Source: a plasmid. Taken from it: a stretch of 64,000 bases of DNA. Within the stretch, counting starts at the first letter, position 1, and every line of letters begins with the position of its first letter. Where the stretch lies: the sequence record NZ_CP033968.1. The stretch is one strand, 5' to 3'. Both the position numbers and the translations under genes were made by a program. The notes beneath the pieces were generated by a model, which did no database searches, was not told the origin of the DNA, and worked only from the letters and a program-made list of their open reading frames with translations. Positions 16,869 to 51,302 of the stretch are shown piece after piece.

Positions 16869-17017
16869 ACCGATGATTACTGCGTCCCCGCTCATAGAGC
16901 GTGCTCTGTAGATTCGATACGGTTTGGCACGCCTTCGCACGAACGTGCGAGGTTGAATCAGGCAGCACCAGACTAACAAATTAGATTACCGGCACTGCGT
17001 CGCCGCGTGAGCAGGTT

Positions 17018-17596: not shown

Positions 17597-17811
17597 GATC
17601 GGACGATCACTCCGCACGACGATATATTGGAACTGGGAGGAAGGCCGACCGAACGCAAATGGTGACGCACTTTGGTCGCGCGGACTGACGGGTCGAACGT
17701 GTCTGCTGGCAGGATTCGAGGCAGCCCCCTTGCTTGCCAGATACCGTCACGCCTGGCATTTCCTTTGGCGCGGAAGGACAATGTGCTTACTCGGTTTGAG
17801 GTTCTACGGCA

Positions 17812-18867: not shown

Positions 18868-18964
18868 GAAACCGCACAATTCCGTTGGCGATAGCTATCG
18901 CGCGAAAACAGGGAGCCGCGCCACCAAGCTGCATCTGCTCGACGAACTGGTCGACGTCGTTACG

Positions 18965-19489: not shown

Positions 19490-19532
19490 TAAAAACCCGC
19501 CGCCATTTCTAGCCTGGCGGCGGTTACACCAC

Positions 19533-21936: not shown

Positions 21937-21950
21937 CCGGAAGTGTCGTG

Positions 21951-23327: not shown

Positions 23328-23589
23328 AACTGTCTCCTGACTTTCTTCGTAGAGCTGCTGACGCTTGCCGCTGTCGATGCAAGCTTGGAGATCAGTGTAG
23401 TCAGCGAACTTCAGGAAAACAGCATGTGTGATGACACTATTACTCAACGTGATAGTAGTTAGCGCTGGACGTAAAGTTGCGCGTCCAGTATCAGGGTTTA
23501 CGCATGTGTCAGGCGTAAAAAGAAGAAGGGCCGCCTTGTTTGAAGCGGCCCTTAATGCCCTTTGGATTTGGCGCGCTAGCGCGGTCAAT

Positions 23590-23676
23590 AGGTGTGGAAG
23601 TACTCCTGGATGCGCTTCGGATCCTTGGTAAGAGTCAGTGCCAGCATCAGCAGAATGCGGGCCTTCTGCGGGTTCA
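23590..23676 (-). pseudogene. ansB: ansB 3' fragment (last 28 codons of L-asparaginase II), separated from the rest of the gene by the transposon
   Basis: Minus-strand translation [30 protein letters not shown] equals the canonical AnsB C-terminus. It abuts the left transposon terminal repeat. Confidence 0.8.
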
Positions 23677-23722
23677 GAGGGTCGGCCGGAATTCGTGAAA
23701 TTTTCGCCAAAGTGATCTTAAG
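23677..23722 (+). repeat. Transposon terminal inverted repeat, left (Tn3-family type: GGGTC tip ... TTAAG inner end)
   Basis: Direct sequence comparison with 39372..39417. Confidence 0.85.
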
Positions 23723-24051
23723 TATTTGATCCGAAATGAGAAAGCCATTCTCCACCTCGGGCCAAGGTGCCGTTCCCTAGTCTTACTTCGCCTAATCTGA
23801 CGGTGTGGGTATCGTGAAAATCCGCCACACCTCCACATCTCAGCTAACCCGATAATTGGAAAGGAAACTTCGGTTCCGATGCGCGCTAGCGGGGCAGACG
23901 CCGGTGGCTGTCAAGGCAGGGCGGCGTAGCAACTTTGCCGCCGACACCAAGAGCCGAGCAGTGCAGCGCTAGAGTGGCCGTAGTAGCAGCAGCGCGTTCT
24001 TGGTAATCCCATCAAGCTCTGTACATTGTGGGGATTCGACATCAAAATATT

Positions 24052-24934
24052 TCAAGATCCACTCTCATCCGGACGAAGGTGAGCATGCTGTTTAGTGCTC
24101 CATAATTCGGCCCAAGATTGGACTTGCTCTGCTGGCATGGGCTTGGCGACAAAATACCCTTGTGCAACGTCACACCCTATAGCTCCCACGTAGTCCCAGT
24201 CTGCCTGATCCTCTACACCTTCGGCAACGATGCGCAGGCCGAGTCGGTGAGCCAGAGATACTGTAGCCTCTATGATTGATTGGGAAATCGCTTTGCCTTC
24301 ATGGCCGGCATTACGCACGAAACTTCGATCTAATTTAAGTTCAGTGAAAGGGATATCTCTTAATTTGGTCAAAGTCGAATGACCAGTGCCGAAATCGTCA
24401 ATTGACAGGGTTACCCCCATGAGCTTAAGTCGGGCCAGCACTTCAAGCGATACAATCGGGTTAGCCATTATCTGCGATTCGGTAAGCTCGATCGTCAAAC
24501 ATGAGATATCAGCTCCTGCCGCGGCGGCATCCTCCAAGTCATCAAGAAATCCGAATGTGCTAAGGCTTTCCATCTGCACGTTCAGTGCAATCGGCAAGTC
24601 GAAATCCAAGTCCTGCCAGCTTTTCGCCTGAAGGAGCACTTGGGCAAGCATCGACTTGTCCAGTAATCTGGCATGGCCATGAGCCTCAACAGCATTCATA
24701 AATTGCGAGGCTGGCAAAACGCCACCGTGTGAGTGCTTCCATCGTGCCAGCGCCTCAACGCCAACCAGCGTCGCATTCGCCAAGTCGACCTTTGGCTGGT
24801 AATACGCGACAATTTCAGACTCTTCAATCGCGGCCTCCAGATCTGCACTTGTAAAGCGGGGTGCTGGTATCTTGGGCGGACGCCAGGCAGGCCCAAGCCT
24901 TCTATCGCGCAGGACCCTCTCCAACGACGCCTTA
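24052..24934 (-). pseudogene. EAL-domain (c-di-GMP phosphodiesterase) half of an IS-split REC-EAL response regulator (RocR/PvrR-like)
   Basis: EAL signature YQPK....EALARW, ELTES, DDFGTG.S, EGVE...Q. Reading frame is open up to the IS5 insertion point. After removing 918 bp (IS plus one TSD) it is in phase and contiguous with the REC half (...LPKPVTK|ASLERVLRDRR...). Confidence 0.85.
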
Positions 24935-24943
24935 GAGACTGTT

Positions 24944-25732
24944 TCAAAAAGACGGCTCAGCGCGCCTGAAGATGTTCCAGCAGACGAGAGAGCAGCCGAG
25001 TTTTAGGAACGCTTCGTGAATGTCGGCTCGACGTTCGAAGCGAATGCGAAGACGACGAAAGTTGTGAAGCCACGCGTGAGTACGTTCGACAACCCAGCGG
25101 AATTTGCCCAAGCCACTGCCGTGTTCTGTCCGGCGCTTGGCGAGCACCGGTTTGATGCCGCGCTCGCGAAGCCGCTGACGATGCGGCTCGGAGTCGTAGC
25201 CACGGTCTGCGTAGATGACTTTGGGCTTTTGAAGCGGGCGACCGCGCACGCCGCGAATTGGCGGGATCGCGTCGACGAGCGGCAGCAGTTGGGTGACGTC
25301 GTTGCGGTTCGCCCCGGTCAGGATTGCGCTGATGGGGACGCCATTTGCGTCGACGAGGATGTGATGCTTGGAACCTGGTCGCGAGCGATCCGTGGGGTTC
25401 GGACCAGTTTTTCGCCCGCCCCAACGGCTCGCACAGACGATGAATCGACGGCTGCTCGGGAGAAGTCGAGTTCGCCGGCCTCGCGTAACTTCGCCAGCAG
25501 TAGCTCGTGCAATCGCTTCCAAACGCCGGCCTTCTGCCAATCGCGCAAGCGCCTCCAGCAGGTCGGCCCCGACCCGAATCCCAACTTGGTCGACAGGTCG
25601 CACCAGCGTATGCCAGTCTTGAACACGAACAGGATGCCGTTCAGTGCAGCCCGGTTCGAAACCGGGAGCCGCCCTGGATATTTCTTGCGTCGCGGTTTCG
25701 GCGGCGGCAGCAAAGGTTCGATCAGTGCCCAC
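24944..25732 (-). CDS. IS5-family transposase OrfB (DDE domain)
   Basis: 262-aa ORF with DDE_Tnp_1-like motifs (ILVDANG...YADRGYDS...ERTHAWL). Overlaps OrfA in the -1 frame. Confidence 0.8.
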   Translation of the reverse strand: MGTDRTFAAAAETATQEISRAAPGFEPGCTERHPVRVQDWHTLVRPVDQVGIRVGADLLEALARLAEGRRLEAIARATAGEVTRGRRTRLLPSSRRFIVCASRWGGRKTGPNPTDRSRPGSKHHILVDANGVPISAILTGANRNDVTQLLPLVDAIPPIRGVRGRPLQKPKVIYADRGYDSEPHRQRLRERGIKPVLAKRRTEHGSGLGKFRWVVERTHAWLHNFRRLRIRFERRADIHEAFLKLGCSLVCWNIFRRAEPSF

Positions 25733-25761
25733 AGTTCATCATCAATGATCGGCGCGCTCAT
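25318..25761 (-). CDS. IS5-family transposase OrfA (HTH, N-terminal part of frameshifted transposase)
   Basis: 147-aa ORF DDELWALIEPLLPP...GRLPVSNRAALNGILFVFKTGIRWCDL, typical of IS427/IS5 OrfA. Confidence 0.75.
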   Translation of the reverse strand: MSAPIIDDELWALIEPLLPPPKPRRKKYPGRLPVSNRAALNGILFVFKTGIRWCDLSTKLGFGSGPTCWRRLRDWQKAGVWKRLHELLLAKLREAGELDFSRAAVDSSSVRAVGAGEKLVRTPRIARDQVPSITSSSTQMASPSAQS

Positions 25762-25852
25762 CCCCTCGGTTCCAGTTGTTCAGATGGCCAAGGTTAACAG
25801 CTTGCCGAAAAGGTTAACAGCCCCCCGGGGCTCTTTTTGAAACGGTCTCTTA

Positions 25853-26205
25853 GTAACCGGCTTTGGCAAGCTGGCGATAACCTGTAGTCCGTGCAATTTG
25901 GCAAGCTGCTCCGCAGTCTGGAGAATTCCCGCGCCTTCACCGCTGACCAGTAACAGGGCACCGGTATAACCGGCGGCGGAAAGGTGGCGGAGGAATTCGA
26001 TGCCGTCCATTTCGGGCATCTGCAGATCTGCGATCACTAACCGAAATGCACGTGGCTCTTTTTGGATCAGCGCGAGGGCACCATTGGCCCGTTCAAATGT
26101 AGTAACCTTGTCGTAACCAATCTGCTCAAGCTGCCGGCTCAGCAGTCTGAGGCTGAATACATCATCGTCAATAAGAGCAACTTCCGCGGCAAGCGTGGTT
26201 TTCAT
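25853..26205 (-). pseudogene. Receiver (REC) half of the IS-split REC-EAL response regulator
   Basis: ALIDDDVFSLRLLSRQLEQIGY...LVIADLQMPEMDGIEFLRHL...LLVSGEG: phospho-acceptor Asp and the full REC fold. Frame runs into the IS right end, where it terminates. Confidence 0.85.
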
Positions 26206-29200
26206 TGTAAGTTCCTTCCTTCGGCTATCGCTATGCTAGCCTGAATCTCGTGCTGCAATGTTGAAAGTGCATGCGTAACTCGTAATGCCTCGTCCTCGAA
26301 CGATGCAAGAAGCTCGCCCAAGTCCAAATCCTCCTTGCAGGCGCGCTCTATTTGCGTGCAAAGCTCGCCCAAGGACAAAGCGCCAACCGATCGCGAGGAG
26401 GACTTCAACCGGTGAGAGAGGTAGCTGGCCTCGTTGCGGTTATCGTTTCTCAGTGCCTGATGCAGTCTGGGCTGCATCTCTCGCAGTTGTTCAGCATAGG
26501 CAGATAGCAATTCAGAAACGACCTGGGGATCGTCGCCGATCATCTCATGAAGAACAGACACATTCATGGAGCGGTCGTACCCTCTTTGCTCTTCCTGAGT
26601 CAGTACAGCGCCCCGTGACGCAGGCTTAAGCCATCGTTCGAGAGCGGCTTTCAAGCTATTGAGATGCAGTGGTTTGGTCAGGTAGTCGTCCATGCCTGCC
26701 GCTAAGGCACGTTGTTTCTCGCCAAGCATGGCATTGGCTGTCAGTGCCACAATTGGCGTCTCCCCGCCATTGCCCTCGGCATCCCGGATCGCCCCAACTA
26801 GCGCGTAGCCGTCCATGATTGGCATGTGTATATCGGTCAGGATCAGTCCATAGTGGGACCGTCGCCACTCCTCAATCGCTTCGGCACCGTTGTTCACCAA
26901 TTTGGCTTGGTAACCGAGAAGCTCCAATTGAGCACATATCACTTTCTGGTTGATAGGATCGTCTTCAACAACCAGGATCTTGCTAGATTCGGCGGCCGAT
27001 GTCCGATGGTGTTTGGCGGTCATTTCATCGCGCTTGGCAGCAGCGGGTGCTATCGGGAACGAAAGCATCGCTGAAAAGGCCGAACCGATCCCGACCTCAC
27101 TTGTCACCGAGATCTGTCCGCCCATGGCTCTGACTAAACGCTGACAGATCGCCAAGCCCAGGCCTGTACCGCCGTAGCGCCGCGTGGTCGACGCTTCGGC
27201 CTGCGTAAACGGCTCGAACAGATGAGGAATCGCATCGCCTGCGATGCCGATGCCGTTGTCCGTCACAGAGAAAGTGATGGTTTGCGCGGCAGGTTCTCCT
27301 TCGCTGGCTCCAATAACATCGACGCTGATCTCTACAGATCCCGCTACCGTCGGTCGGCCGGTCGAAAACTTGATGGCGTTGCCGACCAGGTTATACAGCA
27401 CCTGACGCAAGCGCGTTTCGTCTGCAAGTACCCATTCAGCCACGTTGTCTGAGACACCACAATGCAGACTGACATCTGCTGCATTGGCCACAGGAAGCAG
27501 GGCAAGATACACTCCCTCCACGACTTGACGCGGTGACACGGGGTTGCTTTCAATTTCCATTCGCCCCGCTTCAATCTTGGAGAAATCGAGGATGTCATCA
27601 ATGAGACGAAGCAGCGTTGCAGCAGACTGGCGGATCGTCGAAGCGATATCGGATTGATTCTCGCTTAGCCCACTGCGACTTAACACCTCGATCATGCCGA
27701 CCACTCCATTCATTGGTGTCCGAATTTCATGGCTCATGGTCGCTAGGAAGGCGCTCTTCGCTCGCGACGCGGACTCTGCCTCGGCTTTGGCGAGCAACAT
27801 CTGGTCACGCGCGGCGCGGATGTCGGTGACGTCACGCGCAATCGCATAAATATACCCATCCGGTTCTCGTACTGCATTCCAGGCCAGCCAACGATATGTG
27901 CCATCCTTGCAGACGTAGCGGTTCTCAAAATGCTCAGCTAGCACTCCGACATTGCTCGAGGCCACAATCTCAAAGGTTCGCGGGCGGTCTTCCGGATGGA
28001 CGAAATTAATATAGGGCTGGCGGGCAATTTCGTCAGATGTCCACCCCAGAACTTGGGTAAAGGCACGGTTCACACGTTTTAGATAACCGTCTTCGCTCGC
28101 GATGCACTGCAAGTCTATCGATAGTTCGAAAAACCGATCCCGCTGGGTTTCGGCCATTCGGCGGGCACTTATATCCTGCAGGAGCACCAGTGCTGAAGAT
28201 TCACCGTCCCAGTCATAAGGCACCGCTGTTACCTCACATTCCAGTAAGGAGCCGTCAAGGCGTATCCAACGCTCCGCGGTGGTTGGCACACTGATGCGCT
28301 GCTTGCGTAGCAAACTAATGCGTGATTTGACCAGGTCACGGTCCGTGCAATGGACTAGTTCGAGGATGTTTCGATCCAGCAGTGCATCAACGGAAGACGC
28401 CCTGAGCATACTGACGGCCATTGGGTTGGCGTAGCAGATCTTGTCGTTGCGTTGCACGATGACGGCATAGGGCAAAAACTCGATGAGTCTGCGATAACGA
28501 TCCTCGCTTGCTTGAAGGGCCTTCTCCGCAGCACGTTCGACGCTGACATCGCGCATCACCAGCACGGTGCCCTGGAAAACCCCGGCATCATTGCGCAGAG
28601 GCGCCGCGCCAAGAATGATGTCAACTGGTGTCCCTCTTGCTGCGCCATGCAGCGTCAAGTCTGAGCGGTTAAGCGGTAGCCCGGTGCGCGAGACCTCGCT
28701 GACGGGATCCACGAAGGTCCCACCATCGTCTGCGCATGTCAAACGCAGTACTTCGGTCACCTGTCTGCCTACCGCCTCGCCCCATCCCAGACCGATGAGT
28801 TGGCTGGCCATGCCGTTTATACGCTTCACGTTTCCCACTGCGTCCGTGGAAATGACCGCATCGCTGATGGCATGCAATGTGATGTGAAGATCCCGCTCGC
28901 TTTCCTGTAAATCGGCGTGGCTGGTGATATCGCGGATGAGCAGCAACGTTCCGCCATCACGGCGCGAATCGACCTGGATTTCATACACAACAGTCGTTTG
29001 ATCGGCGATAGGGAAAATCAGTGTTTGTTTTTCTTCTCCTTGCAGAGCCTCGCAAAGCGACTGTACCTTGGATGTTCGATCGAGGCTGCCGTCATGCCGA
29101 AAGAGCGTTTTGGCAACGCTCTCAATTCGAGTCCCTATCAGTTCTGCCCGGCTAGCCTCTAGAAGCAGCAGCGCATGGCTATTGAGGCCGTCGACGCACC

Positions 29201-29360
29201 CGCCCCTGTCAAATCCCATTGCCGGATAGGGAATCGCCTGGAAAAGTGCATCAATGCGCTCAGCCTTTCCCATTTCACGGTCTCTGGCGGCGTTTGCGGC
29301 GAGCGTGGCGCCGAGCATGCTATCCATCAGGGCGGTCTGCTTTGCACGGGCTGACCTTGC
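26202..29360 (-). pseudogene. Hybrid sensor histidine kinase (PAS x3 - HisKA - HATPase_c - REC - HPt), cytoplasmic part; the N-terminal sensor part is separated from it by an IS3-family insertion (RocS1-like)
   Basis: MSHEIRTPMNGV H-box; HATPase G-boxes ([15 protein letters not shown]); REC (ILVVEDDPINQKV...DIHMPIMDG); C-terminal HPt (SHRLKSSSRSVGA). In-frame translation stays open upstream of Met 29327 all the way to the IS3 boundary, so the native start is missing. Confidence 0.85.
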
Positions 29361-29391
29361 CCCTGTTCCACGAATCCCATAACCGAGGGAA

Positions 29392-30285
29392 TTAGGCAGC
29401 CCGGTGTTGCTGAGCTGCGGACCAGTTTTTCTCGAACGTCATGGGGCTGACGTAGCCCAGCGTCGAGTGGAGTCGGCTGGCATTATAAAAGCCAAGCCAG
29501 TCAATTACCTCGTCCATTGCGGCGCGGCGGGTAGCGAACTGGCGACCGTGCAGGCGAGCGACCTTCAACGACCCCCACAGACTCTCAGTCGGCGCGTTGT
29601 CCCAGCAATCGCCCCTGCGGCTCATTGACGAGCGCATGCCATACGCCTTCAGGGCGTCTTGAAACAGATGGCTGCAATACTGGCTTCCCCGGTCGGTGTG
29701 CACAATCACACCGGCTTCCGGGCGGCGCCGGAACCAGGCCATGCGCAGCGCGTCCGTGACCAATTCGGCCTTCATGTGTGGTTGCATCGACCAGCCAACC
29801 ACCTGCCGGCTGAACAGGTCGATGATGACCACCAGGTAGAGCCAGCCTTCGGCGGTCGCCACATAGGTTATGTCGCTCGTCCAGACTTGATTGGGTGCTG
29901 CTGGGCTAAAGTCGCGTTGCAGCAGATTGGGGGCCACCGGCAAATCGTGGTTCGAGTTGGTTGTCGCGATGTACTTGCGCTTGTGGCGGGCACGGATGCC
30001 GTGCAGCGCCATCAGCTTGCGAACACGCTCCTTGCCCACCCGCACCCCACGCGCCAGCAGTTCCTTCCACATGCGCGGCCAGCCGTACTCCCCCTTGACC
30101 CCGGCGTGAATCGCCTTGATGTGGGCCAACAAGGCATCGTCACTGAGTCGGCCTCTATCTGGCCTGTCGGTGCTTACTGTGCGTTGCTTGCGCTGGTGAT
30201 AGCCGCTGGGGCTGACCCCTAACAGCTCACACAGGACCGAGACCGGCCAGTAACGTCGGTTTCGCTCGATGAACGCATACCTCAC
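29392..30285 (-). CDS. IS3-family transposase OrfB (integrase core)
   Basis: 297 aa; VWTSDITYV...IDLFSRQVVGW...HTDRGSQY...DNAPTES DDE motifs. Confidence 0.85.
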   Translation of the reverse strand: MRYAFIERNRRYWPVSVLCELLGVSPSGYHQRKQRTVSTDRPDRGRLSDDALLAHIKAIHAGVKGEYGWPRMWKELLARGVRVGKERVRKLMALHGIRARHKRKYIATTNSNHDLPVAPNLLQRDFSPAAPNQVWTSDITYVATAEGWLYLVVIIDLFSRQVVGWSMQPHMKAELVTDALRMAWFRRRPEAGVIVHTDRGSQYCSHLFQDALKAYGMRSSMSRRGDCWDNAPTESLWGSLKVARLHGRQFATRRAAMDEVIDWLGFYNASRLHSTLGYVSPMTFEKNWSAAQQHRAA

Positions 30286-30581
30286 ACCGACTCCTTCGCA
30301 AAGTATGCTGCGGCTTTTTTTAAAATATCGCGCTCCATCTTCAAGCGCGCCACCTCCGCCCGAAGCCGGGCCAGCTCCATCTGCTCCGGGCTGACCGGCT
30401 TCATACCCGCACCAGTCAGCTTGCCTTCCCGCTCCGCCTTGACCCAGTTATGCAGCGTCTGCGCTCTGATGCCCAGGGTCGCGCTAACCACTGCCATGCT
30501 CTGCCCGCTCTTCACCAGCCGTACCGCTTCCAGCTTGAATTCCAGCGTGTACTGCGCCCGCTTTGTCTTGCTTGTCATCAC
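30282..30581 (-). CDS. IS3-family transposase OrfA (HTH)
   Basis: 99 aa; RAQYTLEFKLEAVRLV...LGIRAQTLHNWVK HTH_Tnp_1 plus coiled-coil. Confidence 0.85.
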   Translation of the reverse strand: MMTSKTKRAQYTLEFKLEAVRLVKSGQSMAVVSATLGIRAQTLHNWVKAEREGKLTGAGMKPVSPEQMELARLRAEVARLKMERDILKKAAAYFAKESV

Positions 30582-30636
30582 ATCTCTCCTTGCTTCAGTT
30601 TAACCTCAGCAAGGGATTCGTTTTGCGGGGGCAAGC

Positions 30637-31500
30637 TCAGGCATATAAAATCAGCGCCGTCATCAAGATTCCTACGATGAGCAGAAAGGTGCGTCGCGCA
30701 CGATACCCGGCAAGGTACTCTGGTTCGGAGAGGCCAACTGCTACAGCGAGCGGGTAATCTTTGATCGATCGGAAGGCGATGGCCTGGGTCGTACCGTCCA
30801 CGAAACTGGGACCCCGAAAATTTCCAGCGGTGGAAGACGCCGCAAATGCCCGTCCTAAAGCGCTAGTTAATGGGATTTTCGCGCCGAAGTGCGAGTCCGG
30901 GTACGAGCGTTCTGCCCGTATGATGAAATCCCTTGCACCAAACACCAGTACCTGGCCATGTTCTCCCACTCTCAACTGATCGAACAACTGTATCAGGTAG
31001 GCCGGGTCCAGGGAAACCACTACCACGCCGAGGAAATCGCCCTCACTGTCTTCAATTCGCTTGGATAACTGAATGGATGGTTTGCCGCTCGCGCGGCCAA
31101 TGAGAGGCTCACTGATATACAAGCCGGATGCCGGAGCATTAACGTGCGCGCGAAAATGCGGCCTGTCACTAAGATCAACTGGCTTGAATCCTGGGACGGT
31201 GGAGGCTCGCAAAATGCCACGCTGATCGATTACTGCAACTTGCAGAAATAGGCCTAACTGGACCGCTTTTGCCTGGACATAAGGGACCAAGGCTATATTA
31301 GGCCCAGATTTCAGCACTTCCTGCGTGACCATCCAGGCCAGTTGATCCGCTTGTCGCAGCACACGGGTTGTGTGTGCTGCTAAGAGATCGCTTAGTGCAG
31401 CAGCCCGTTCTTCAGCAGCATCCCGCTCCGAGTCCTGATCCCACATCATGGCCGACGCAAGGGCGACCCACAATGCCAGTACGAGCATCCCTCCCCGTCC
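30637..31500 (-). pseudogene. N-terminal periplasmic sensor domain (Cache-like) plus TM helix of the IS3-split hybrid kinase
   Basis: Signal/TM (MLVLALWVALASAMMW), extracytoplasmic domain of about 250 aa, then a second TM (RTFLLIVGILMTALILYA). Terminates at the IS3 boundary. Start coordinate uncertain. Confidence 0.6.
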
Positions 31501-32219
31501 TAGGGCTCTAAAGTGTTTCTTGTTTAACAATTGATCGTGTGGTCCGCTGGCGGACGGTCGGTGGTGCCAGACTGTTGGCAGTACTTTGAACTTTAGAGTG
31601 ATTTTACTAACAATGCGTGGTGGTGACCAAAACGGTGCGGAGGGCAAAGCAGGACGGGGAGGAAGGGCATAAATCCACTCCAATAGCCGCAAATGATGCA
31701 ACCAAAAGCGTGCCATGAGCGGTGCCGCCCGCGGCCAGAGCAGTATCGCCAGCACCGTGGTGACGTTGAATGTGGCGTCGTTGTCACTGTGCAGCACGGC
31801 TTAGCCGCCATGGCGTCAATACTCTCGGCCTGCGCTGTGTGCGTTTGACCGGATGCGTGGCATAGTCCGCGTCGTCGCGATGAATACCCACCGCGCTTCC
31901 GCGCCGACGTTCCAATTGGTCACAATACCCGCCGGCGAAAACATGAAAATCGCGTCGTCAGTGACGCCCTGAACCAGAATCCGGAACTGCCCCTCTGTTT
32001 CGCGGGTGCCGACCTGGCTAGTGTCTTCTCTACATGTTTGCGCCTACAAGTCCCCCGAAGACTCAGTTCCGGTTTGACGCTTCGGAGAGTTGAACTGTCC
32101 CACTAAACTGCCTGTGTGGTGCAATGTGCATCTACGAGCGCCAGGTTACCGGTAGCGGAACTGTTTCTTGGTAAGTCTTCGAACTACAGCTTCATTCTTA
32201 AGCCCATCGACCGATGTCC

Positions 32220-32809
32220 CTATGCATCGTCGCCTGCCGTTGCGTGGCCCATTTGCACGGTGTGGAACCGCGACTCCGCTTCGCGGAACAGCAACTTAAC
32301 CTTGTCGACGTCCCAGGGCCGTTCGGCCAAGGTCTCATGATCCCACTGACTGCGGGGCTCGGTCGGATGGAAGAAGTCACCACCATAGACGTGGATGGCG
32401 CACGTCATCTTGCCGATCGGATTCAGCACAGAATGGATCGCCTCCCGGTCGAGCACAGCGACGTCGCCCACTCCAAGAGATCTAGCTGTCGTTGCCTCGA
32501 TACCCGATGCCGTCCGCCGCCAGAAGACATTATCCTCGCGTCCCGCATAGATGCCCACTGCCGAGAACATCCGGTGATTGTGGGGCATGAGGCTCATGCA
32601 CGGTGCCCAGACGAAATTGATGACCGTGACCTCGGGCGAGGTGTAGAGCGGTAAGAGGCCGGCGTGTTCCGGCTCGCCGAGCCCGGCGAAGATACCGGCG
32701 CCGTCGGCAACAGCTTCTGCCACCACCTCGCGCACGGCCTGCGAGCCTTCGGCGACGGCCTTGACGCAATCCTCGATGAAGCGGTCCTTATCGAACACGA
32801 TCCTAACCT
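32220..32809 (-). CDS. Cupin-fold thiol dioxygenase-like protein (cysteine dioxygenase type / COG5553 family)
   Basis: 196 aa from GTG 32809 (AGGAGG RBS). His-x-His cupin motif LMPHNHRM plus downstream His (AIHSV). Conserved VINFVWAPCMSLMP and HVYGGDFF strands. Confidence 0.6.
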
Positions 32810-33352
32810 CCTGCGCTGAGTTTTTGGTCCGAGATCGTCCCGCATTCGAACCGCGCGCTCGGAGCGGAATGATGGCATTCCCGCGTTCGTCGATCGGGTA
32901 CGCATATTTGAAAAAGGCGGCCGGGAGCCGTTCCTGTCCTCCAGGAGGGCGACAGCCAAGGCCGAGTTGCAAGAGCAGGCCGGCGGACAGGTTTCGGAGC
33001 CCTGCCTTTGCTCGAACGACTGGGATGCCAGGCCAGCGAACGACAACTCTTGGCTGGGAAGCGGCCTTCGAGGTTCGAAGTGGCCATCGATCTGCGACGA
33101 CACAAGTCCCGGGTCATGCTCGCAGTATAGATGTGCGGGGAGACCAATGGGTTCCGACATGAGCTTTGGCGCGCCGTGATCGATGAGCGCCGCATTGGGG
33201 CAACGGCGGTGCGTACGCCTGTAGGTAGTCGCGCAAGCGCGGCGCTTTGGGCAGTGCGCATGGCGGCGGCGCCCTCCAGCGCAAACCGGCGAGGCCGATC
33301 CATTCGAGGCCGATGGTCCGAGCGATTCACGAACGCCAGGGCCAATACGCGC

Positions 33353-34537
33353 CTACTGTGGCGGGGCGGGCGCGGTGGGTGGTTGAGCTTGTTGCTCGCC
33401 CACGGTGTGCGCATGCCGCCGGTCGTCCTCGGCGTGCAGGTAGATGCCGGTCGTCTCGATCGAGGCGTGCCGCAGGTTCTTCTGAATAAAGCGGATATCG
33501 GTACCCGCGTCGGCCTGGTGCGAAGCCGCGGAATGGCGCAGCCAGTGCGTCGAGGCACGCGCCAGCGTCGCCGCGCCGGCCGGATCGCTCGCCTCCAACA
33601 CGGCGGCCGCCCGCCGGAACACTTCCTTCGCGATCAGATAGACCGCCGTCGGCGTGAGGTGCCGCTGCGCGTCCCCGGCGACGCTCAGGATGGCCGGGCT
33701 CAGGTCACCGGGCCCCGGCATCGGCGGCAGGCCGTGGAACGCGCGATAGCGAGCAAACTCGGCCATCAACGCGTCGCTCACTGGTACCTCGCCCTCGGCG
33801 CCGCCCTTGCCGACAACGTACAGCCACCAGCGCCCGCGCCGCTGGACAAAGTCGGCTGCCTTCGCGTGGGCGGCTTCGCTCGCGCGCAGCGCCGTATGGT
33901 AGAGGAAGCGCATCACCCAGCGGCTGCGCTCGTAATGCTGGCACTCGCGCGGCGTGCCCTGCGGCCAGCCCTCCATCGACGCGAGCACCACCTGCCACAG
34001 CGCATGATCGAGATAGCGCTCGACGCGTCGCGCGCGCGAGCCACGCGTTGAACGGCTGCGGCGCAGGGCAAGCGGATTGCCTGCGAGGTAGCCGGCCGTG
34101 ACAAGGTAGTCCAACAGACCCGAGAGGATGCCGAGCGCTTGACGGCGGCTGCCCTCGGCGAGCGGCCCCCCGAACAGGCGCCGAGCGCCGCCGCGGCGCG
34201 GCAGCGCCGGGTCGATCCAGTCCGCCGTTGGCGCGGCAAGGAAACGTTCGTACAGGAGGAAATCCTCGCGCGTGAGGCTAGAGAGCGGCTTGCCCAACGT
34301 GCGCGTTGCCCAGATGAGCAGCCGTACTACTTCCTTTCGGTAGCTGCGCAGCGTGTGCGGCGAGCTGGCGTACTCGGCAAGCCACAGGCGTACGGCCTCG
34401 ATATCGGTGTCGGCGGCGATCTGGCGGTGGCCGCCGCGCGCGCGGTTGGTACCGTCATGGCCGTCGAGTGCGGCGGGCAGCGCGACGAGCAGAAGCGATT
34501 CGGGGGCTGGGGCAGGCAGGTTCATGGGGTTCCGCAT
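33353..34537 (-). CDS. tnpS: Tyrosine recombinase, TnpS-like (cointegrate resolvase of Tn4651-type transposons)
   Basis: 394 aa; catalytic R...HWLRHSAAS...R..GIYLH (R-H-R-Y tetrad region). Divergent from a TnpT-like gene with a 133-bp palindromic intergenic res-like region. Lies inside the Tn3-family element. Confidence 0.7.
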   Translation of the reverse strand: MRNPMNLPAPAPESLLLVALPAALDGHDGTNRARGGHRQIAADTDIEAVRLWLAEYASSPHTLRSYRKEVVRLLIWATRTLGKPLSSLTREDFLLYERFLAAPTADWIDPALPRRGGARRLFGGPLAEGSRRQALGILSGLLDYLVTAGYLAGNPLALRRSRSTRGSRARRVERYLDHALWQVVLASMEGWPQGTPRECQHYERSRWVMRFLYHTALRASEAAHAKAADFVQRRGRWWLYVVGKGGAEGEVPVSDALMAEFARYRAFHGLPPMPGPGDLSPAILSVAGDAQRHLTPTAVYLIAKEVFRRAAAVLEASDPAGAATLARASTHWLRHSAASHQADAGTDIRFIQKNLRHASIETTGIYLHAEDDRRHAHTVGEQQAQPPTAPAPPQ

Positions 34538-34670
34538 CGTACACCTAGTAACCTTACGATTATGCGCGTTATCGTAAATTTCTACGGCTTGTGATTACAG
34601 ATATAACGTAATACGATCATATACATCAGTCAGATTCACGAAATTCCACCCTCTCAGCCCGCTTCCGCCC
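34538..34670. promoter_or_regulatory. Putative res/recombination site and divergent promoter region between tnpS and tnpT
   Basis: AT-rich segment containing the inverted repeat TTACGAT-N10-ATCGTAA plus additional ACGTAATACGAT half-sites. This position corresponds to the res site in TnpS/TnpT-type transposons. Confidence 0.5.
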
Positions 34671-35618
34671 ATGAGCCGTATCAGCGATACCCGTCTACGC
34701 ACCCGCGACGCCGCCGCGCGCTTGGTTTCCGCGGGCCGGCACCCGCATGAACTCACCGTCGACCTGATCTACGCCGAGATCCGCCAGGGCAGCCGCACCA
34801 CCATCAACGACGAGCTGAAGCTGTGGAAGGACGAGCAGGCGCGCAACGACGCGCTCTCCGCCGCACTGCCGCCAGCAGTCGCCAACGCCATGCTGTCGGT
34901 CTGGGCGTTGGCCGTCGAACAGGGGGAACAGGTCTTCGCGCAGCGCAGCGGGGAGTTTGAGGCCGAAGCGACCGCCGCCATCACGCGCGCCGAATCGCTG
35001 CAGGCCGCCAACACAGGGTTGCAGGCGGAAGTGCAAACGCTTCGCGCCCAGGTTGACGACCTGCAGGCGCGGCTCGCTACCGCGCTGGCCGCTCACGCCC
35101 GGGGCCAAGCCGAACTGGAGGCTGCCATCCGACGGGCCGAAGCCGCCGCGGCTGAGGGCGATGCCGTGCGCGCGCAAGCAGAGCAGGCCTTGCGCGAAGC
35201 GCAGTCCGCCCATGCCCGCGAACTGGAAGCACTGCGGACCGCCCGCGCCGAACACGAGGCCGCCCTGCGGGTGGAGGTCGACCAGGCTACCGCCCGGCTC
35301 GAAGGCGTGCAGAAGCTCGTCATGCTGCAGACCGAGGAAGCGCGCGAAGCCCAGCGTCGCGCGGAAGCTGCCCTTGCGAAGACCCGCCAGCGCAACGAGC
35401 AACTTGTGGCTGACGGGCAGCGGCTCAGCGCCGACGCTGCTGAACACCGCCGGCTGGCCGAACGGCATGAAAAACAGCTCGCCAGTGTCATGGAAGAGAC
35501 GCGCGAACTGCGGCGTGAGCGCGATTCCCTGACCCAACAGGTCGCCCTGCTGCAGGGCCAGCTCAAGGGTCGCGACGAGTCTGCGCCAGCGCGTACAGCC
35601 AGGCGTCGCGCCGGCTGA
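34671..35618 (+). CDS. tnpT: TnpT-like recombination accessory protein (KfrA-N-like DNA-binding head plus Ala/Glu/Arg-rich coiled coil)
   Basis: 315 aa; N-terminal LVSAGRHPHELTVDLIYAEIRQGSRTTINDELKLWK resembles KfrA_N. The remainder is a long alpha-helical AEAR repeat region. Orientation and position match Tn4651 tnpT. Confidence 0.6.
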   Translation: MSRISDTRLRTRDAAARLVSAGRHPHELTVDLIYAEIRQGSRTTINDELKLWKDEQARNDALSAALPPAVANAMLSVWALAVEQGEQVFAQRSGEFEAEATAAITRAESLQAANTGLQAEVQTLRAQVDDLQARLATALAAHARGQAELEAAIRRAEAAAAEGDAVRAQAEQALREAQSAHARELEALRTARAEHEAALRVEVDQATARLEGVQKLVMLQTEEAREAQRRAEAALAKTRQRNEQLVADGQRLSADAAEHRRLAERHEKQLASVMEETRELRRERDSLTQQVALLQGQLKGRDESAPARTARRRAG

Positions 35619-35713
35619 GCCAACAGCGAGCAACGGTTTTCGGACTACCGCGGAGCGCGTCAGCGCCCGCGCTACAATCGGGCCTTCGGTCATCGCCTGC
35701 GGGCGCTGGACCG

Positions 35714-36190
35714 ATGCAGTGCCATGAGCAACCGCCCGACAGGAAACCGAGCCTCATGAACACGAACGAACCACAGCCACCAGCCTGGCAGCCGATCGCT
35801 GCGCTGCCGGTCATTCTGGATCTCGCCGGCGCGCAGATTGATGAGGTACAGGCCACCTTCGACGCCCTGACCCGGTGCCGGTCGCGACCCCATGTGCTTG
35901 ACGACGCCACCCTGGCCCGGACGCGCCAGGTCTACGGCGAACAACGGGATTTTCTGCCGATCCAGCGCGAGCAGGTGGCACGGTGGCGATCCGGGCCGCT
36001 CACACCGCAGGAGCGCGAAGCCCTTGCTCATCTGAGCGCGCGGATCGACCGGCTGGCGGCGCTGCTCGACGATCTGCTCGCGCTGGCAGACGAGCTGTCG
36101 CACGGCACGATCGACCGGATCATGGGCATGAGCGATGCGGACCTTGCCACTGCGGTGTTATCGGGCGCGCTCAGATTGCCGCAACGCTGA
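35714..36190 (+). CDS. TnpC-like small protein upstream of tnpA (possible transposition regulator)
   Basis: About 145-158 aa ORF directly between tnpT and tnpA, co-oriented. No recognisable catalytic motif. Assignment by position only. Confidence 0.35.
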   Translation: MQCHEQPPDRKPSLMNTNEPQPPAWQPIAALPVILDLAGAQIDEVQATFDALTRCRSRPHVLDDATLARTRQVYGEQRDFLPIQREQVARWRSGPLTPQEREALAHLSARIDRLAALLDDLLALADELSHGTIDRIMGMSDADLATAVLSGALRLPQR

Positions 36191-36241
36191 CAGGCGGAAA
36201 ATGCAGCAACGGTACCGGCTGGCTCGATTCGCGCGGCACCT

Positions 36242-39223
36242 ATGAACCAGATTTCCGAAACCGCGTACCCGTTACTGCCAGCGGAGATCACCGCAGACGA
36301 GTTGCGGGCAGTCTACACGCCCAGCGCCGCCGAAATCCGCTTCGTGTATGGCCAGTTCCGGCAAGCGCCAACACGCGTGCTGATTCTGACGCAGCTCAAA
36401 CTGCTTCAGCGTCTGGGATACATGCCGCCAATGTCAGACGTGCCACCCGAAATCGTCGCCCATATTTGCTCGGTGCTCAAGGTCCGATCGCCGCCCCGCA
36501 CGACAATCAAGCGCTATGACAGGTCGGGCAGCAAGTCTCGGCACCAGAAGGTGCTGCGCGAATTTGTCGGCATCCGCGTCGTTGATGCGCTTACCCATGA
36601 ATGGCTTGCTGTCGTCGCGGCCATCGCGGCGCGCACGAAGGCAGAGTTGCCGGACATCATCAACGTTCTGCTCGAAGAGCTCATCAGGCAGCGCTACGAA
36701 CTGCCGCCGCTGGCAACCCTCTCGCGCATTGCGGCTTCCGCCCGCAGCCGGCTTCACGAGACCATCTACCAGGCCTTCTCCGACGCGTTGGACGAACCGC
36801 TCAGAGCCCGCCTCGACGCTCTCTTCAGCAACCGGGCGGGACGCACGCCCTGGGACGAACTGAAGCGGGAACCAAAACGGCCGAGGCCGCGCGAGGTCGC
36901 AAGCTTCCTCAAACACATTCAGGCCTTGAACGAGCTGGCCGACGGCCTACCGCCGCCGCCGGAAATGCTCTCGGTCCCCAAGCGCATGCAACTCGTCCTT
37001 GAAGCACGGGCCCTCGACGTCCATGAGATGCGCATGCTCAAGCCGGCGAAGCGCTACACGCTTGCTGTGCTATTCATCCTCGCGCAGCTGCAGAAGGCAC
37101 TTGATGACGTCGCGGAAATCTTCATCAAGACGGTCCGCAACCTGGAAGGCACGGCGGAACTGCGCATGAAACAGTATCGGCTGGCGCACGCTGACGAGCT
37201 CGAATCGCTCGTCAGTCAGTTTCGCGATGTGCTCCACATCCTGCAAGACGACGAGGCGCCGCCCGCCGAGCGCATTGCGCGCATGAGGGCATCCCTCAAT
37301 GACGATCCCGGCAACGCCCTGAGCCGATGCAACGAGCACATCGCATATACCGGCAATCACGCCATCCCGTTTCTGCTGGCCCCATACAGGAATCTGCGGT
37401 CACTGCTGTTCCAGTGCCTCGATCTCCTGTCACTGCGCTCGAGCTCCCAGGACGATGCCCTGCTCGGCGCGCTCGCTTGGGTCCAGCAATACCGGGCCTC
37501 ACGTCGCGAATACCTGCTGCTGGGCGACGCCGACCTCGCAGAGCTGCCGCTCGACTGGATGCCAGAGAAGTGGGAGAAATTTGTCTTCCCGGACGGGCGG
37601 ACCGCCCGACTGCTGCACCGGAAATATTTCGAGTTATGCGTGTTCAGCCAGCTCAGGCGTGAACTCAACTCCGGGGACGTTTACGTCGAGCACAGCGACC
37701 AGTACGATGATCCCCGCGAACACCAGGTATCGTGGGACGAATTCCGCGAAGAACTGCCGCGCTATGGCGAACTCGTCGACTTCCCGGTCGATAGCCGGGC
37801 CTTCGTCCAGCAACTGAAGGACCAACTCAGCGCACTGGCCGACGAGGTCGACGCTGCCTTTCCGGAGAACGACTACGTCGAGATTGGCGACCAAGGTCTG
37901 ATTCTCCACAAGCTCGAGAAGAAGCCCGACCCGCCAAACAAGATGTTAATCGACCAGGCCATCACGGCGTCGATGCGGCCGGTCAGCATCCTTGACATCC
38001 TGACCGAAACCGAACAGTGGCTCGACCTGCACCGGCTGTTTGGCCCGTTATCCGGCTTCGAGGCGAAGATCGACGAGCCGCGCAAGCGCTTCATCACGAC
38101 GCTGTTCTGCTATGGGTGCAATCTCGGACCGGCGCAGACGGCGCGCTCGGTAAAGAACCTCAGCCGCAAGCAGGTCGCCTGGCTGAATCTGCGCCACGTG
38201 ACCGAAGAGCGCCTGGACAAGGCCATCGTCCGGGTCATCAACGCCTACAACCAGTTTGCGTTGCCGAAGTTCTGGGGTTCCGGAAGCCGAGTTTCGGCCG
38301 ACGGCACGAAATGGAATCTCTACGAGCAAAATCTGCTGTCCGAATATCACATCCGGTACGGCGGCTATGGCGGTATTGGTTACTACCACGTGTCGGACAA
38401 GTACATCGCGCTCTTCAGCCACTTCATTCCGTGTGGCGTGCATGAAGCCGTCTACATCCTCGACGGGCTGATCAAGAATACCTCCGACGTGCAGCCGGAC
38501 ACGGTCCATGGCGATACCCAGGCGCAGAGCGCGCCGGTCTTCGCACTCGCACACCTGCTCGGCATCAAACTAATGCCCCGCATCCGCGACATCAAGGAAC
38601 TGCGCTTCTACAAAGCGGACCGGCGCCGTCGCTACACCAACATCGAATCACTGTTCCGCGGCAACGTCGACTGGGCCCTCATCGAAAGGCACTTGTCGGA
38701 CATGCTGCGCGTCGCCATCTCAATCAAAGCCGGCCGGATGACGCCATCGACGATCCTGCGGCGCCTCGGCTCCGAGAGTGTCAAGAACAAGCTGTATTTC
38801 GCGTTCCGCGAGCTCGGGCGGGTAATCCGCACGCTGTTCCTGCTGCGCTACATCAAGGACCCCGAAATGCGCCGGACGATCCATGCCGCGACGAACAAGA
38901 GCGAACAGTTCAACGATTTTGCGAAATGGCTGATGTTCGGCGGTGACGTCATCGCGGAAAACGTCCGGCACGAACAGCGCAAAGTCATCAAGTACAACCA
39001 GCTCGTCGCGAACATGGTCATCCTCTACAACGTGCAGTGGATGTCGCGCAAACTGAAGGAGTTGCAAATGAAGGGCCATCCTGTCGACGCCGAGGTGCTC
39101 CAGGCGCTGTCGCCTTACCGGAAGGACCACATCAACCGGCTCGGGTCTTATTTGGTGGATCTCCAGCGGAAGGTGCCGCCGCTCGATACGTCGATCGATT
39201 TCGTTTTCGGATCGGCGGCATAG
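36242..39223 (+). CDS. tnpA: Tn3-family transposase TnpA
   Basis: 993 aa; N-terminal DUF4158-like region and C-terminal DDE_Tn3 core (...GSGSRVSADGTKWNLYEQNLLSEYHIRYGGYGGIGYYHVSDKYIALFSHFIPCGVHEAVYILDGL...). The 3' end lies 149 bp from the right terminal repeat. Confidence 0.9.
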   Translation: MNQISETAYPLLPAEITADELRAVYTPSAAEIRFVYGQFRQAPTRVLILTQLKLLQRLGYMPPMSDVPPEIVAHICSVLKVRSPPRTTIKRYDRSGSKSRHQKVLREFVGIRVVDALTHEWLAVVAAIAARTKAELPDIINVLLEELIRQRYELPPLATLSRIAASARSRLHETIYQAFSDALDEPLRARLDALFSNRAGRTPWDELKREPKRPRPREVASFLKHIQALNELADGLPPPPEMLSVPKRMQLVLEARALDVHEMRMLKPAKRYTLAVLFILAQLQKALDDVAEIFIKTVRNLEGTAELRMKQYRLAHADELESLVSQFRDVLHILQDDEAPPAERIARMRASLNDDPGNALSRCNEHIAYTGNHAIPFLLAPYRNLRSLLFQCLDLLSLRSSSQDDALLGALAWVQQYRASRREYLLLGDADLAELPLDWMPEKWEKFVFPDGRTARLLHRKYFELCVFSQLRRELNSGDVYVEHSDQYDDPREHQVSWDEFREELPRYGELVDFPVDSRAFVQQLKDQLSALADEVDAAFPENDYVEIGDQGLILHKLEKKPDPPNKMLIDQAITASMRPVSILDILTETEQWLDLHRLFGPLSGFEAKIDEPRKRFITTLFCYGCNLGPAQTARSVKNLSRKQVAWLNLRHVTEERLDKAIVRVINAYNQFALPKFWGSGSRVSADGTKWNLYEQNLLSEYHIRYGGYGGIGYYHVSDKYIALFSHFIPCGVHEAVYILDGLIKNTSDVQPDTVHGDTQAQSAPVFALAHLLGIKLMPRIRDIKELRFYKADRRRRYTNIESLFRGNVDWALIERHLSDMLRVAISIKAGRMTPSTILRRLGSESVKNKLYFAFRELGRVIRTLFLLRYIKDPEMRRTIHAATNKSEQFNDFAKWLMFGGDVIAENVRHEQRKVIKYNQLVANMVILYNVQWMSRKLKELQMKGHPVDAEVLQALSPYRKDHINRLGSYLVDLQRKVPPLDTSIDFVFGSAA

Positions 39224-39371
39224 AGGAATTCTGGATACCGGGCCGCTCCTGCACGGGGCAGTTCAGCTGCTGACACATCCGTACGCGATAGCTGCGTCAC
39301 GGCTCGGCATCGCCCACACAACCGTGCCTTGGCCCGAGGAAGAGAACCACTTTTACGTTTCGGATCACATA

Positions 39372-39417
39372 CTTAAGGCAACTTTGGCGAAAATTTCACG
39401 AATTCCGGCCGACCCTC
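39372..39417 (-). repeat. Transposon terminal inverted repeat, right
   Basis: Reverse complement matches 23677..23722 (35/35 outer nt identical, inner TTAAG conserved). Followed by the GTTCA direct repeat. Confidence 0.85.
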
Positions 39418-40446
39418 GTTCAGGCTATCTGCGACGAGGCCAGGGTATGCCGGATCATCTGGCACAAAGCCACCACCGGTCCGTGACGAACGCACGACGA
39501 CGATGCCTTGCCCCATCGCCTTTTTGATGGAGGGGATGGCGCGCAGCGAAACACTACCGGCGCCTACACCTGAGGCAATGATGCCTTTGATGCCGTTGTT
39601 TGCTGCGGCTTCGTACATGAATCCGGAGTCACTTTGATAGTGCGCGATCACCGCGACTTCGGGCAAGACATCGAGTTTTGCGACGTCGAATGGCGTGGCT
39701 TTGGTGTGAGGCTTTGCCGTGGTGGTTTCGAAGTAGGGGACTTGATCGACCAGTGTTCCGAGGTAGCCCGCGTCCTGCCCCTTGAAGGTGTCCAAAGAAT
39801 TGGCATTGGTCTTCGTGACATACCGCGCAGCGCCAATACGATCATTCAACACGATCATGACACCGCGTCCGCGGGCAGACGGGGCTGCGGCGACCGTAAC
39901 GGCCTGGAGGATGTTACTGGGCCCATCCGCGCTAATCGCCGTCGAGGGGCGCATCGCGCCGGTCACGACCACCGGCTTGTCGCTCTTGACCACCAGATTC
40001 AGGAAGTAAGCCGTCTCCTCCAACGTGTCGGTGCCGTGTGTGATGACAACGCCGGCGATATCGGGCTGCGCCAGGAGGGCGTTCACGCGCTTTGCGAGTT
40101 TCAGGAGAATCTCGTTGGTCATGTTGTCACTGCCAACGTTTGAGATCTGTTCACCCGACACGCGTGCGACTTTTTCGAGCGATGGCACGGAACGAAGCAG
40201 CGCGTCGGCGGTCAGCACGCCAGAGGTGTATGCGGTCGTTTGGGTCTCGCTTGCGCCGGTACCCGCGATGGTGCCTCCCGTAGCCAGCACCGCCACACGG
40301 GGCAATGCAGCTTCTGTGGGCTGGGCATGCGCACCCGTCGAAAGCGTAGCGGCAAGGATGAAGCATTGAGTAATCAGCCAGCGAAAACGGCCTGGAAGGG
40401 TGCGTTGTTGTGTCACAGAGTGCTCCACTGATTTCAGTTTGAACAT
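39418..40446 (-). pseudogene. ansB: L-asparaginase II (periplasmic), N-terminal 343 codons. Interrupted after ...VADSLN by the transposon. The ORF-track C-terminus [13 protein letters not shown] is encoded by the transposon repeat
   Basis: Signal peptide, TGGTIAG and HGTDT active-site motifs, GVVITHGTDTLEETAYFLNL. Joining to 23676..23590 across one copy of the TSD restores ...[15 protein letters not shown]... Confidence 0.85.
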
Positions 40447-40469
40447 GTCAATTGATTTGACACGCAGAC

Positions 40470-41237: not shown

Positions 41238-41246
41238 TTTTATGTG

Positions 41247-42748: not shown

Positions 42749-42756
42749 CTTGCCTC

Positions 42757-44133: not shown

Positions 44134-44135
44134 TG

Positions 44136-47812: not shown

Positions 47813-47861
47813 GCGCCGGCGCTGGGCTGGCGGGTGGCAGCGCCCACCGACCCTGAACCAC

Positions 47862-51277: not shown

Positions 51278-51302
51278 TTGAAATCAACCTATGGGGGAAG
51301 CG

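Follow-up and report, generated by a model that had tools for sequence, protein, structure and literature searches.

An Apparently Unnamed Tn3-Family Transposon with Nested Insertion Sequences in the Type II Asparaginase Gene of a pMOL30-Like Megaplasmid

Results

The ansB Gene Is Split by a Repeat-Bounded Insert

We analysed a stretch of 64,000 nt of plasmid DNA (sequence record NZ_CP033968.1; hereafter, the window), in which ansB, a gene for a type II asparaginase, is divided in two by a 15,741-bp insert at positions 23677–39417 that has the features of a Tn3-family transposon. The 5′ part of the gene (39418–40446, minus strand) comprises codons 1–343, and the 3′ fragment (23585–23676, minus strand) comprises the last 28 codons and the stop codon, a proline codon being split between the two. 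When they are rejoined on the minus strand (40446–39423 followed by 23676–23585), the resulting open reading frame (ORF) specifies 371 amino acids and matches the Pfam model Asparaginase (E = 1.9e-64), while Asparaginase_C is aligned through its final profile position (114/114). A first-pass annotation, made from the window's letters alone, had proposed that the two halves restore the C-terminus of an asparaginase II, and this is what we found. The insertion point lies in the codon region for residues 343–344; the last 28 residues of AnsB are replaced by 14 residues translated from the inverted repeat of the insert, a change that very probably abolishes the enzyme activity.

The left terminal inverted repeat (IRL; 23677–23774, plus strand) carries a GAGGG tip and a 46-nt core (23677–23722) that reads GAGGGTCGGCCGGAATTCGTGAAATTTTCGCCAAAGTGATCTTAAG; from position 23672 the sequence is GTTCA followed directly by GAGGGTCGGCCGGAATTCGTGAAATTTTCGCCAAAGTGATCTTAAG. 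The right terminal inverted repeat (IRR; 39320–39417, minus strand; 46-nt core at 39372–39417) ends at its outer boundary in ...GACCCTC. Its reverse complement reads GAGGGTCGG...AAAGTTGCCTTAAG, and on the plus strand it is followed by GTTCA at 39418–39422. The two copies of GTTCA, 23672–23676 at the end of the ansB 3′ fragment and 39418–39422 at the edge of the 5′ part, make up a 5-bp target-site duplication. Compared position by position, the two 46-mers are equal at 43 of 46 positions, the outer 37 nt being perfect and the three mismatches all being inner ones. The repeats themselves and the GTTCA on both sides are, thus, as first annotated, except that four inner mismatches had been counted. 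The similarity between IRL and IRR runs further inward, over 98 nt at 85% (83 of 100 positions are equal over 100 nt). The 64-kb window holds no copy of the perfect 37-mer beyond these two, which are inverted relative to each other; 100 shuffles gave a chance expectation of 0.00.

The flanks were compared with plasmid p1 of Cupriavidus metallidurans BS1 (NZ_CP037902.1). The left flank of the insert (window 16000–23676) corresponds to positions 351384–359060 of that record and the right flank (39418–47000) to positions 343806–351388, both at 100% identity and in agreement with local BLAST. These two matches overlap in BS1 p1 by exactly 5 bp, a single GTTCA, within the intact gene for WP_080711477.1 (“type II asparaginase”). 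On the left side, identity is still 100% over 13 kb, until the end of the circular record. At the ansB locus, the window and BS1 p1 differ by the 15,741-bp insert plus one additional GTTCA and by nothing else, which is direct evidence that the insert arrived recently and precisely and duplicated 5 bp of its target. The ansB gene of BS1 p1 is the true empty site of the transposon, and the fact that the flanks are still 100% identical to it argues for a very recent event. Precise integration into ansB and its recency, both suggested before any related genome had been consulted, are borne out by this uninterrupted gene.

The alternative, that BS1 p1 once carried the transposon and shed it through precise excision, and so is not the ancestral empty site, strikes us as extremely unlikely. 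The two plasmids are nearly identical, so that their divergence gives no direction of change; however, a deletion that restores exactly one GTTCA together with an intact reading frame is a rare event, and the replicative mode of Tn3-family transposition speaks against it. Members of this family transpose replicatively, and precise excision is not known among them. Whichever direction holds, the structure in the window is that of a transposon insertion.

Taking these data together with those presented below, it is very likely that 23677–39417 represents a single Tn3-family transposon, apparently an unnamed one, with a native length of about 13.5 kb, which has inserted into the type II asparaginase gene of a pMOL30-like megaplasmid near-identical to BS1 p1 and has duplicated GTTCA in doing so. 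With its boundaries fixed to the base, its 5-bp duplication and the host gene that it interrupts, the annotation of the region is unambiguous.

The Transposase and Its Relatives

The tnpA gene (36242–39223, plus strand) encodes a transposase of 993 amino acids with a DUF4158 domain and a complete DDE_Tnp_Tn3 domain (profile positions 1–389 of 389, E = 2e-148). It scores 712.8 bits against the NCBIfam model NF033527 (cut-off 500) and aligns over its full length with TnpA of Tn4430 (PDB 7QD4), whereby D687, D758 and E888 fall on D679, D751 and E881 of the latter. Those three residues of Tn4430 TnpA are reportedly catalytic, according to the paper on that structure, and D687, D758 and E888 constitute the candidate DDE triad of the window's TnpA. 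Together with the terminal repeats and the 5-bp duplication, the model matches and this alignment corroborate the membership of the Tn3 family that had been proposed.

Amongst named elements, TnpA is 52.6% identical to its counterpart in TnXax1, 36% to that in Tn4651 and 27% to that in Tn4653, while transposases of the TnAs1, Tn21, TnAs3 and ISPa38 types match over the C-terminal half only (~31%). Across the plasmid collection, the closest relative occurs in Cupriavidus taiwanensis (95.6%), followed by 48 records with identities of 80–90% (81–82% in the Burkholderia loci examined) and by Ralstonia (71%); more distant plasmids yielded 51% (Xanthomonas) and 36% (one Pseudomonas aeruginosa plasmid).

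TnXax1, from plasmid pXAC64 of Xanthomonas citri, thus has the closest named TnpA, with 52.6% identity extending over the full length. Within the Tn3 family, it is counted among the members of the Tn4651 subgroup (PMC7157771), and GAGGG tips and long repeats (92 bp) have been described for it (PMC4337579). Its repeats and those in the window are visibly homologous, with the same GAGGG tip, and the similarity between the two ends is unusually long in both (92 bp in TnXax1, PMC4337579; 98 nt here). In both elements, a tyrosine recombinase gene is divergent from a gene for a KfrA_N protein, the spacer carries a palindrome, and the ends hold passenger genes. They differ in gene order (in TnXax1, tnpS is directly upstream of tnpA, whereas the order in the window is tnpT-orfX-tnpA, with orfX as an extra gene), and by BLASTP, TnpS and TnpT of TnXax1 are not similar to the recombinase and its partner protein in the window. 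Moreover, the cargo of TnXax1 consists of type III effectors, whereas the element in the window carries a signalling module and resides in a betaproteobacterium.

Tn4651, from plasmid pWW0 of Pseudomonas putida, resembles the insert in being a Tn3-family element with terminal repeats of the 46-bp class and a 5-bp duplication. Its rst site is located between divergent tnpS and tnpT genes, according to two secondary accounts (PMC4337579, PMC7157771). The architecture corresponds to that in the window, where the gene for a tyrosine recombinase diverges from that for a KfrA_N/coiled-coil protein, with the putative site in between. In contrast, the resolution and transposase genes of Tn4651 are some 50 kb apart on pWW0, whereas they are adjacent here, its TnpA is only 36% identical, and its TnpS is Cre-like where the recombinase in the window is Xer-like. 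The label “Tn4651-like TnpS/TnpT” given in the first-pass annotation is, therefore, apt for the gene architecture and the KfrA_N domain of TnpT, but not for the recombinase, which lacks BLASTP similarity to TnpS of Tn4651 or TnXax1. The closest named relative of the transposase is that of TnXax1, not that of Tn4651.

A Putative Resolution Module

In the right part of the insert, the ORFs were found as first described: a minus-strand tnpS, a palindromic spacer, tnpT, a small ORF, and tnpA. The tnpS-like gene (33353–34537, minus strand) encodes a tyrosine recombinase of 394 amino acids (Pfam Phage_integrase), the presumed cointegrate resolvase, with candidate catalytic residues R218, K244, H331, R334, H357 and Y366 in the usual motifs, i.e., the full R-K-H-R-H-Y set. 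NCBIfam classes it as Xer-like and its best solved relatives are XerC and XerD, whereas the best solved relative of Tn4651 TnpS is Cre. The tnpT-like gene (34671–35618, plus strand) encodes an accessory protein of 315 amino acids with an N-terminal KfrA_N domain (Pfam, 2e-14) and a coiled coil, a combination common to this protein and to TnpT of both Tn4651 and TnXax1. Its match to Tn4651 TnpT is weak and confined to the N-terminus (E = 7e-4), and no BLASTP match to TnXax1 TnpT was found at E < 0.01; for comparison, Tn4651 and TnXax1 are 54% identical to each other in TnpS and 43% in TnpT. By its position, the tnpS-like gene product would fill the role of TnpS, but it belongs to another clade of tyrosine recombinases and is not an orthologue of the characterised TnpS proteins.

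The 133-bp spacer between the two genes (34538–34670) is a putative resolution (rst-like) site, containing palindromes and with a G+C content of 44% versus 60% for the whole element. It includes a candidate core site, the 9-6-9 palindrome TTACGATTA-TGCGCG-TTATCGTAA at 34554–34577, and a second conserved block at 34593–34624; both blocks are identical in a sister element of C. taiwanensis (see below). Relatives from Ralstonia, Burkholderia multivorans and Zoogloea keep the right arm plus ATTTC unchanged but vary in the 6-bp centre of the palindrome, a pattern expected of the core site of a tyrosine recombinase. A sigma-70 promoter scan of the tnpS-tnpT spacer returned nothing.

The recombinase belongs to a family of 1330 protein clusters (E <= 1e-10), most of the best-scoring ones being from Burkholderiaceae. 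Three organisms were sampled (Ralstonia solanacearum, B. multivorans and Zoogloea); in all of them, a KfrA_N gene diverges from the recombinase gene and a Tn3 transposase lies nearby. Relatives of TnpA with 81–82% identity adjoin a serine recombinase in one Burkholderia plasmid, which shows that modules have been exchanged within the lineage.

The orfX Gene

Directly upstream of tnpA lies orfX (35756–36190, plus strand), which encodes 144 amino acids and which we studied by profile searches and an AlphaFold2 model. The model is an all-helical bundle (pLDDT 85.8) of a generic kind, for which Foldseek found no fold match in the PDB (best E-value 0.46). This ORF had been called “tnpC-like”, a label that has to be dropped: orfX does not match the TnpC model NF041282, which TnpC of Tn4651 matches at 3.1e-39, its BLASTP comparison with that protein gives E = 2.0, and it is located upstream of tnpA rather than downstream. 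Tn4651 and Tn4652 have the post-transcriptional regulator TnpC, whereas the element in the window has no TnpC match; however, TnXax1 is also devoid of TnpC, so that its absence does not exclude membership of the Tn4651 subgroup.

In the Burkholderia relatives, orfX likewise lies upstream of tnpA, and at two of these loci it is 59% identical from end to end. An exhaustive profile search returned 1399 cluster representatives (clustered at 50% identity), whose sources range from Firmicutes to actinomycetes and cyanobacteria. None of ten longer family members (0/10) contains a Pfam domain, and the family is without a Pfam or NCBIfam model. We considered orfX as a general Tn3-associated gene and rejected the idea, as six distant plasmids that carry it (in Bacillus, Acaryochloris, Streptomyces, Salmonella, Clostridium and Legionella) have no adjacent Tn3 transposase. 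Its neighbours in these plasmids are ssb, HU, AbrB and DUF932 genes, toxin-antitoxin pairs and traJ/traK. Such surroundings, resembling plasmid maintenance or leading regions, hint at a possible establishment or anti-defence role.

One may speculate that the Xer-like recombinase and the KfrA_N protein form a resolution module distinct from the Cre-like TnpS/TnpT system, with its own core site TTACGATTA-N6-TTATCGTAA, and that orfX was recruited by the tnpA lineage as a transposition accessory or anti-defence factor. We put this combined proposal forward tentatively, as a doubtful though not far-fetched one.

Cargo Genes and Nested Insertion Sequences

Two signalling genes occupy much of the left part of the insert. 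Cargo gene 1 (24052–26205, minus strand) specifies a RocR-like REC-EAL response regulator of the cyclic di-GMP (c-di-GMP) phosphodiesterase type (Pfam EAL and Response_reg, on two halves). It is split after about codon 118 by ISJP4, a 915-bp insertion sequence (IS) of the IS5 family (24935–25849, minus strand) that is flanked by a TTA duplication (24932–24934 and 25850–25852). This ISJP4 has inverted repeats and ORFs matching DDE_Tnp_1 and DUF4096, and plasmid pJP4 carries a 100% identical copy (ISJp4). Cargo gene 2 (26202–31488, minus strand) specifies a hybrid sensor kinase with dCache, three to four PAS, HisKA, HATPase, REC and Hpt domains (Pfam, on the halves) and is split after about codon 283 by a 1288-bp IS3-family element with TG...CA ends (29352–30639, minus strand; GGC duplication at 29349–29351 and 30640–30642). 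RefSeq labels the latter “ISRme13 family”, and it is 100% identical to copies in pMOL30 and the chromid of C. metallidurans CH34. The boundaries of both ISs were set by comparison with an IS-free copy of the transposon (contig L003; see below), in which the two genes are intact and encode 411 and 1331 amino acids, respectively. A further cargo ORF of 192 amino acids (32220–32798, minus strand), called as a gene in L003 and in a second contig, L004, has no Pfam or NCBIfam match.

For the 411-residue REC-EAL protein, the best solved relative is RocR (PDB 3SY8; E = 5.8e-54, full length). The arrangement is reminiscent of the RocS1/RocR phosphorelay of P. aeruginosa, with a full-length RocR match next to a hybrid kinase that includes REC and Hpt. 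Unlike in that system, the kinase in the window senses through a dCache domain, with several PAS domains besides, and no RocA-type DNA-binding regulator lies alongside; moreover, the genes are transposon-borne and, in the window copy, disrupted. The native cargo is predicted to be a two-gene, c-di-GMP-degrading phosphorelay plus the 192-residue ORF. Since ISJP4 and the ISRme13-family element have split both signalling genes, the function of the cargo is lost in the window and only the transposition module looks functional. The left 9.7 kb of the insert were previously annotated as cargo, which is right as to the cargo genes and incomplete in that two secondary IS insertions lie within.

Other Copies, Sister Elements and Mobility

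A look-up of the exact TnpA sequence in public assemblies found the identical protein in three other assemblies. Amongst Logan contigs, L003 (13,518 bp, seen in four samples) spans the transposon from repeat to repeat. The alignment with the window begins 7 bp within one repeat and stops 7 bp within the other, at 100% identity save for two gaps that correspond to the ISs. The IS-free element occurs, for instance, in SRR8668046. The native transposon is, therefore, ~13.5 kb long; the 15.7 kb previously given is correct for the interval but counts in the two IS insertions. Contig L004 starts 29 bp inside the IS3-family element, at the same junction. A metagenome contig, L005, includes the right 4 kb with one mismatch, the same terminal base being joined to a different flank, i.e., another interrupted ORF, for a secreted protein. 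The same transposon end at a different site means that the element has moved more than once.

These copies bear on two other interpretations of the insert. Firstly, the 15.7 kb might not be a single mobile unit at all, and might be a mosaic of a transposition module and signalling genes that arrived separately, or a region bracketed by unrelated fragments with inverted repeats. Tn3-family elements are highly modular, as the serine recombinase beside 81–82% identical TnpA relatives in Burkholderia and the different cargo of sister elements illustrate, and the C. taiwanensis relative is without a matching duplication. However, the interval is enclosed as a whole by the 5-bp duplication, none of it is present at the empty site in BS1 p1, and the unit from repeat to repeat, without the two ISs, recurs with no difference in the independent 13.5-kb contig. 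We consider the mosaic most improbable and already largely refuted.

Secondly, the single transposon that we favour could have inserted by transposition and since become an immobile relic, whether through the inner mismatches of its repeats, a faulty regulatory region, or failure of orfX, tnpS or tnpT. The three mismatches between the 46-nt repeats and the decay of the cargo through two IS insertions would fit such a fate. Against it, all four ORFs of the transposition module are full length, TnpA is unchanged in the three other assemblies, a copy with one mismatch in 4 kb is present at another site, the outer 37 nt of both repeats are perfect, and the flanks, still identical to the empty site, point to a very recent insertion. 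On balance, we think it unlikely that the transposon is dead.

A related, likewise unnamed sister transposon of 12.8 kb occurs on a plasmid of C. taiwanensis SWF66294 (NZ_CP016951.1; L001, 5696–18541) and is also present in Cupriavidus neocaledonicus STM6070. It has the same terminal repeats and is highly similar in TnpA (95.6%), TnpS (92%), TnpT (91%) and OrfX (93%), and its rst-like core and accessory block are identical to those of the transposon in the window. Unlike the latter, it carries MgtC, an ATP-binding cassette (ABC) transporter and a porin as cargo, and DNA similarity between the two ends at the end of tnpA. More broadly, the repeat motif was found at 11 ends in eight species-representative genomes of Burkholderiaceae, where an element in Burkholderia metallica is flanked by a 5-bp CCCTC duplication.

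Related modules were encountered in several arrangements. On the C. taiwanensis plasmid NZ_CP016951.1 (L001, 2523–5740), the left repeat of the sister (5696) lies in a further gene for a KfrA_N “DNA-binding protein”, within its 3′ end. This gene is divergent from a second tyrosine recombinase, 48% identical to the one in the window, with a VapC/Phd-YefM toxin-antitoxin pair between the recombinase and its KfrA_N gene and with a 9-6-9 palindrome of its own, TAGACATAA-GCGGAT-TTATGTCTA, in the spacer; here, one TnpS/TnpT-type module is inserted into another. In R. solanacearum (CP115950.1; L028 and L029), two related modules about 41 kb apart each comprise a KfrA_N gene, an Xer-like recombinase, a SNF2-family helicase, a CcbP-like protein and a Tn3 transposase. 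Their left-hand cargo differs, one of them having a CHASE8-GGDEF-EAL protein, i.e., another c-di-GMP gene on such a transposon. In B. multivorans (L030 and L031), three Tn3-family transposase genes (encoding 998, 1005 and 971 amino acids) cluster within 14 kb round one recombinase/KfrA_N pair and a merR-merT fragment, which suggests nested or tandem Tn3-family insertions.

The Surrounding Plasmid

Elsewhere in the window, a 3.5-kb segment (4661–8180) annotated as IS481-family transposase, AAA ATPase and transposase is 99.9–100% identical to multi-copy elements of CH34 (pMOL30 and chromid) and of other Cupriavidus plasmids. Its size and its ATPase gene fit the description of Tn6049 (PMC2864759), which makes this a candidate name for the segment. 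The region 47700–64000, which includes a phage-integrase-family gene, an HNH endonuclease and a PD-(D/E)XK nuclease, is ~97% identical to pMOL30 of CH34 and to related Cupriavidus megaplasmids. The region of ansB, the ABC transporter and aspartase is found at high identity in BS1 p1 only (the one other record, an Aminobacter plasmid, shows 70% to the aspartase gene), and so has the look of an accessory island within a backbone of the pMOL30 type.

Discussion

From what is established for the Tn3 family, the way in which the transposon in ansB moves can be proposed as follows. TnpA would bind the GAGGG-tipped repeats and drive replicative (copy-in) transposition via a cointegrate, which the tnpS-like recombinase, aided by the tnpT-like protein, would then resolve, with the crossover falling in the 6-bp centre of the palindrome. 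The tnpT, orfX and tnpA genes are probably carried on one transcript that reads out of the spacer.

Several points weigh against this reading of the insert as a precise and competent Tn3-family transposon of the Tn4651 subgroup. The 46-nt repeats are unequal at three inner positions. Amongst PLSDB plasmid records and species-representative genomes, no other instance of the ansB::Tn junction was detected, and we have seen it in the window alone. The flanks of the C. taiwanensis sister show no matching 5-bp duplication (GTCAG versus GTATA), so that not every copy bears the simple insertion signature. By BLASTP, the tnpS-like recombinase is not significantly similar to TnpS of either Tn4651 (E = 0.64) or TnXax1; its putative resolvase role is read from gene architecture and association, not from orthology. 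Transposition and resolution activity are predictions from genes and sites, and the grouping of TnpA with the Tn4651 subgroup is suggested by pairwise identities to TnXax1, Tn4651, Tn4653 and the TnAs1, Tn21, TnAs3 and ISPa38 types.

The element is not Tn6050 of CH34, which has a tnpA-tnpR core like that of mercury transposons and carries sulP, uspA and dksA (PMC2864759). A paper on the mobilome of C. metallidurans (PMC6210171) makes no mention of Tn3, Tn4651 or asparaginase. Our literature search, to which TnCentral and ISfinder were external, revealed no paper that names the element or an equivalent, nor did publications on TnpS in Cupriavidus and on c-di-GMP cargo of transposons. In the full-text search, there was likewise no report of a Tn3-family transposon moving a complete c-di-GMP phosphorelay, i.e., a sensor kinase together with a REC-EAL phosphodiesterase.

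The element is in line with the known behaviour of the Tn3 family, and it is a clean but ordinary case that leaves the current understanding of these transposons standing. Its value lies in part in the window and BS1 p1 being a natural before/after pair for a Tn3-family insertion. The copy in the window also illustrates the rapid decay of cargo by nested IS insertion, with the transposition module kept intact. For the specialist, the widespread Xer-like recombinase/KfrA_N module tied to Tn3 transposases and the large, unannotated helical orfX family are leads to follow. The TnXax1-like TnpA lineage is extended into metal-resistant Cupriavidus, where a phosphorelay cargo such as the native one could alter the biofilm or motility behaviour of a bacterium that acquires it.

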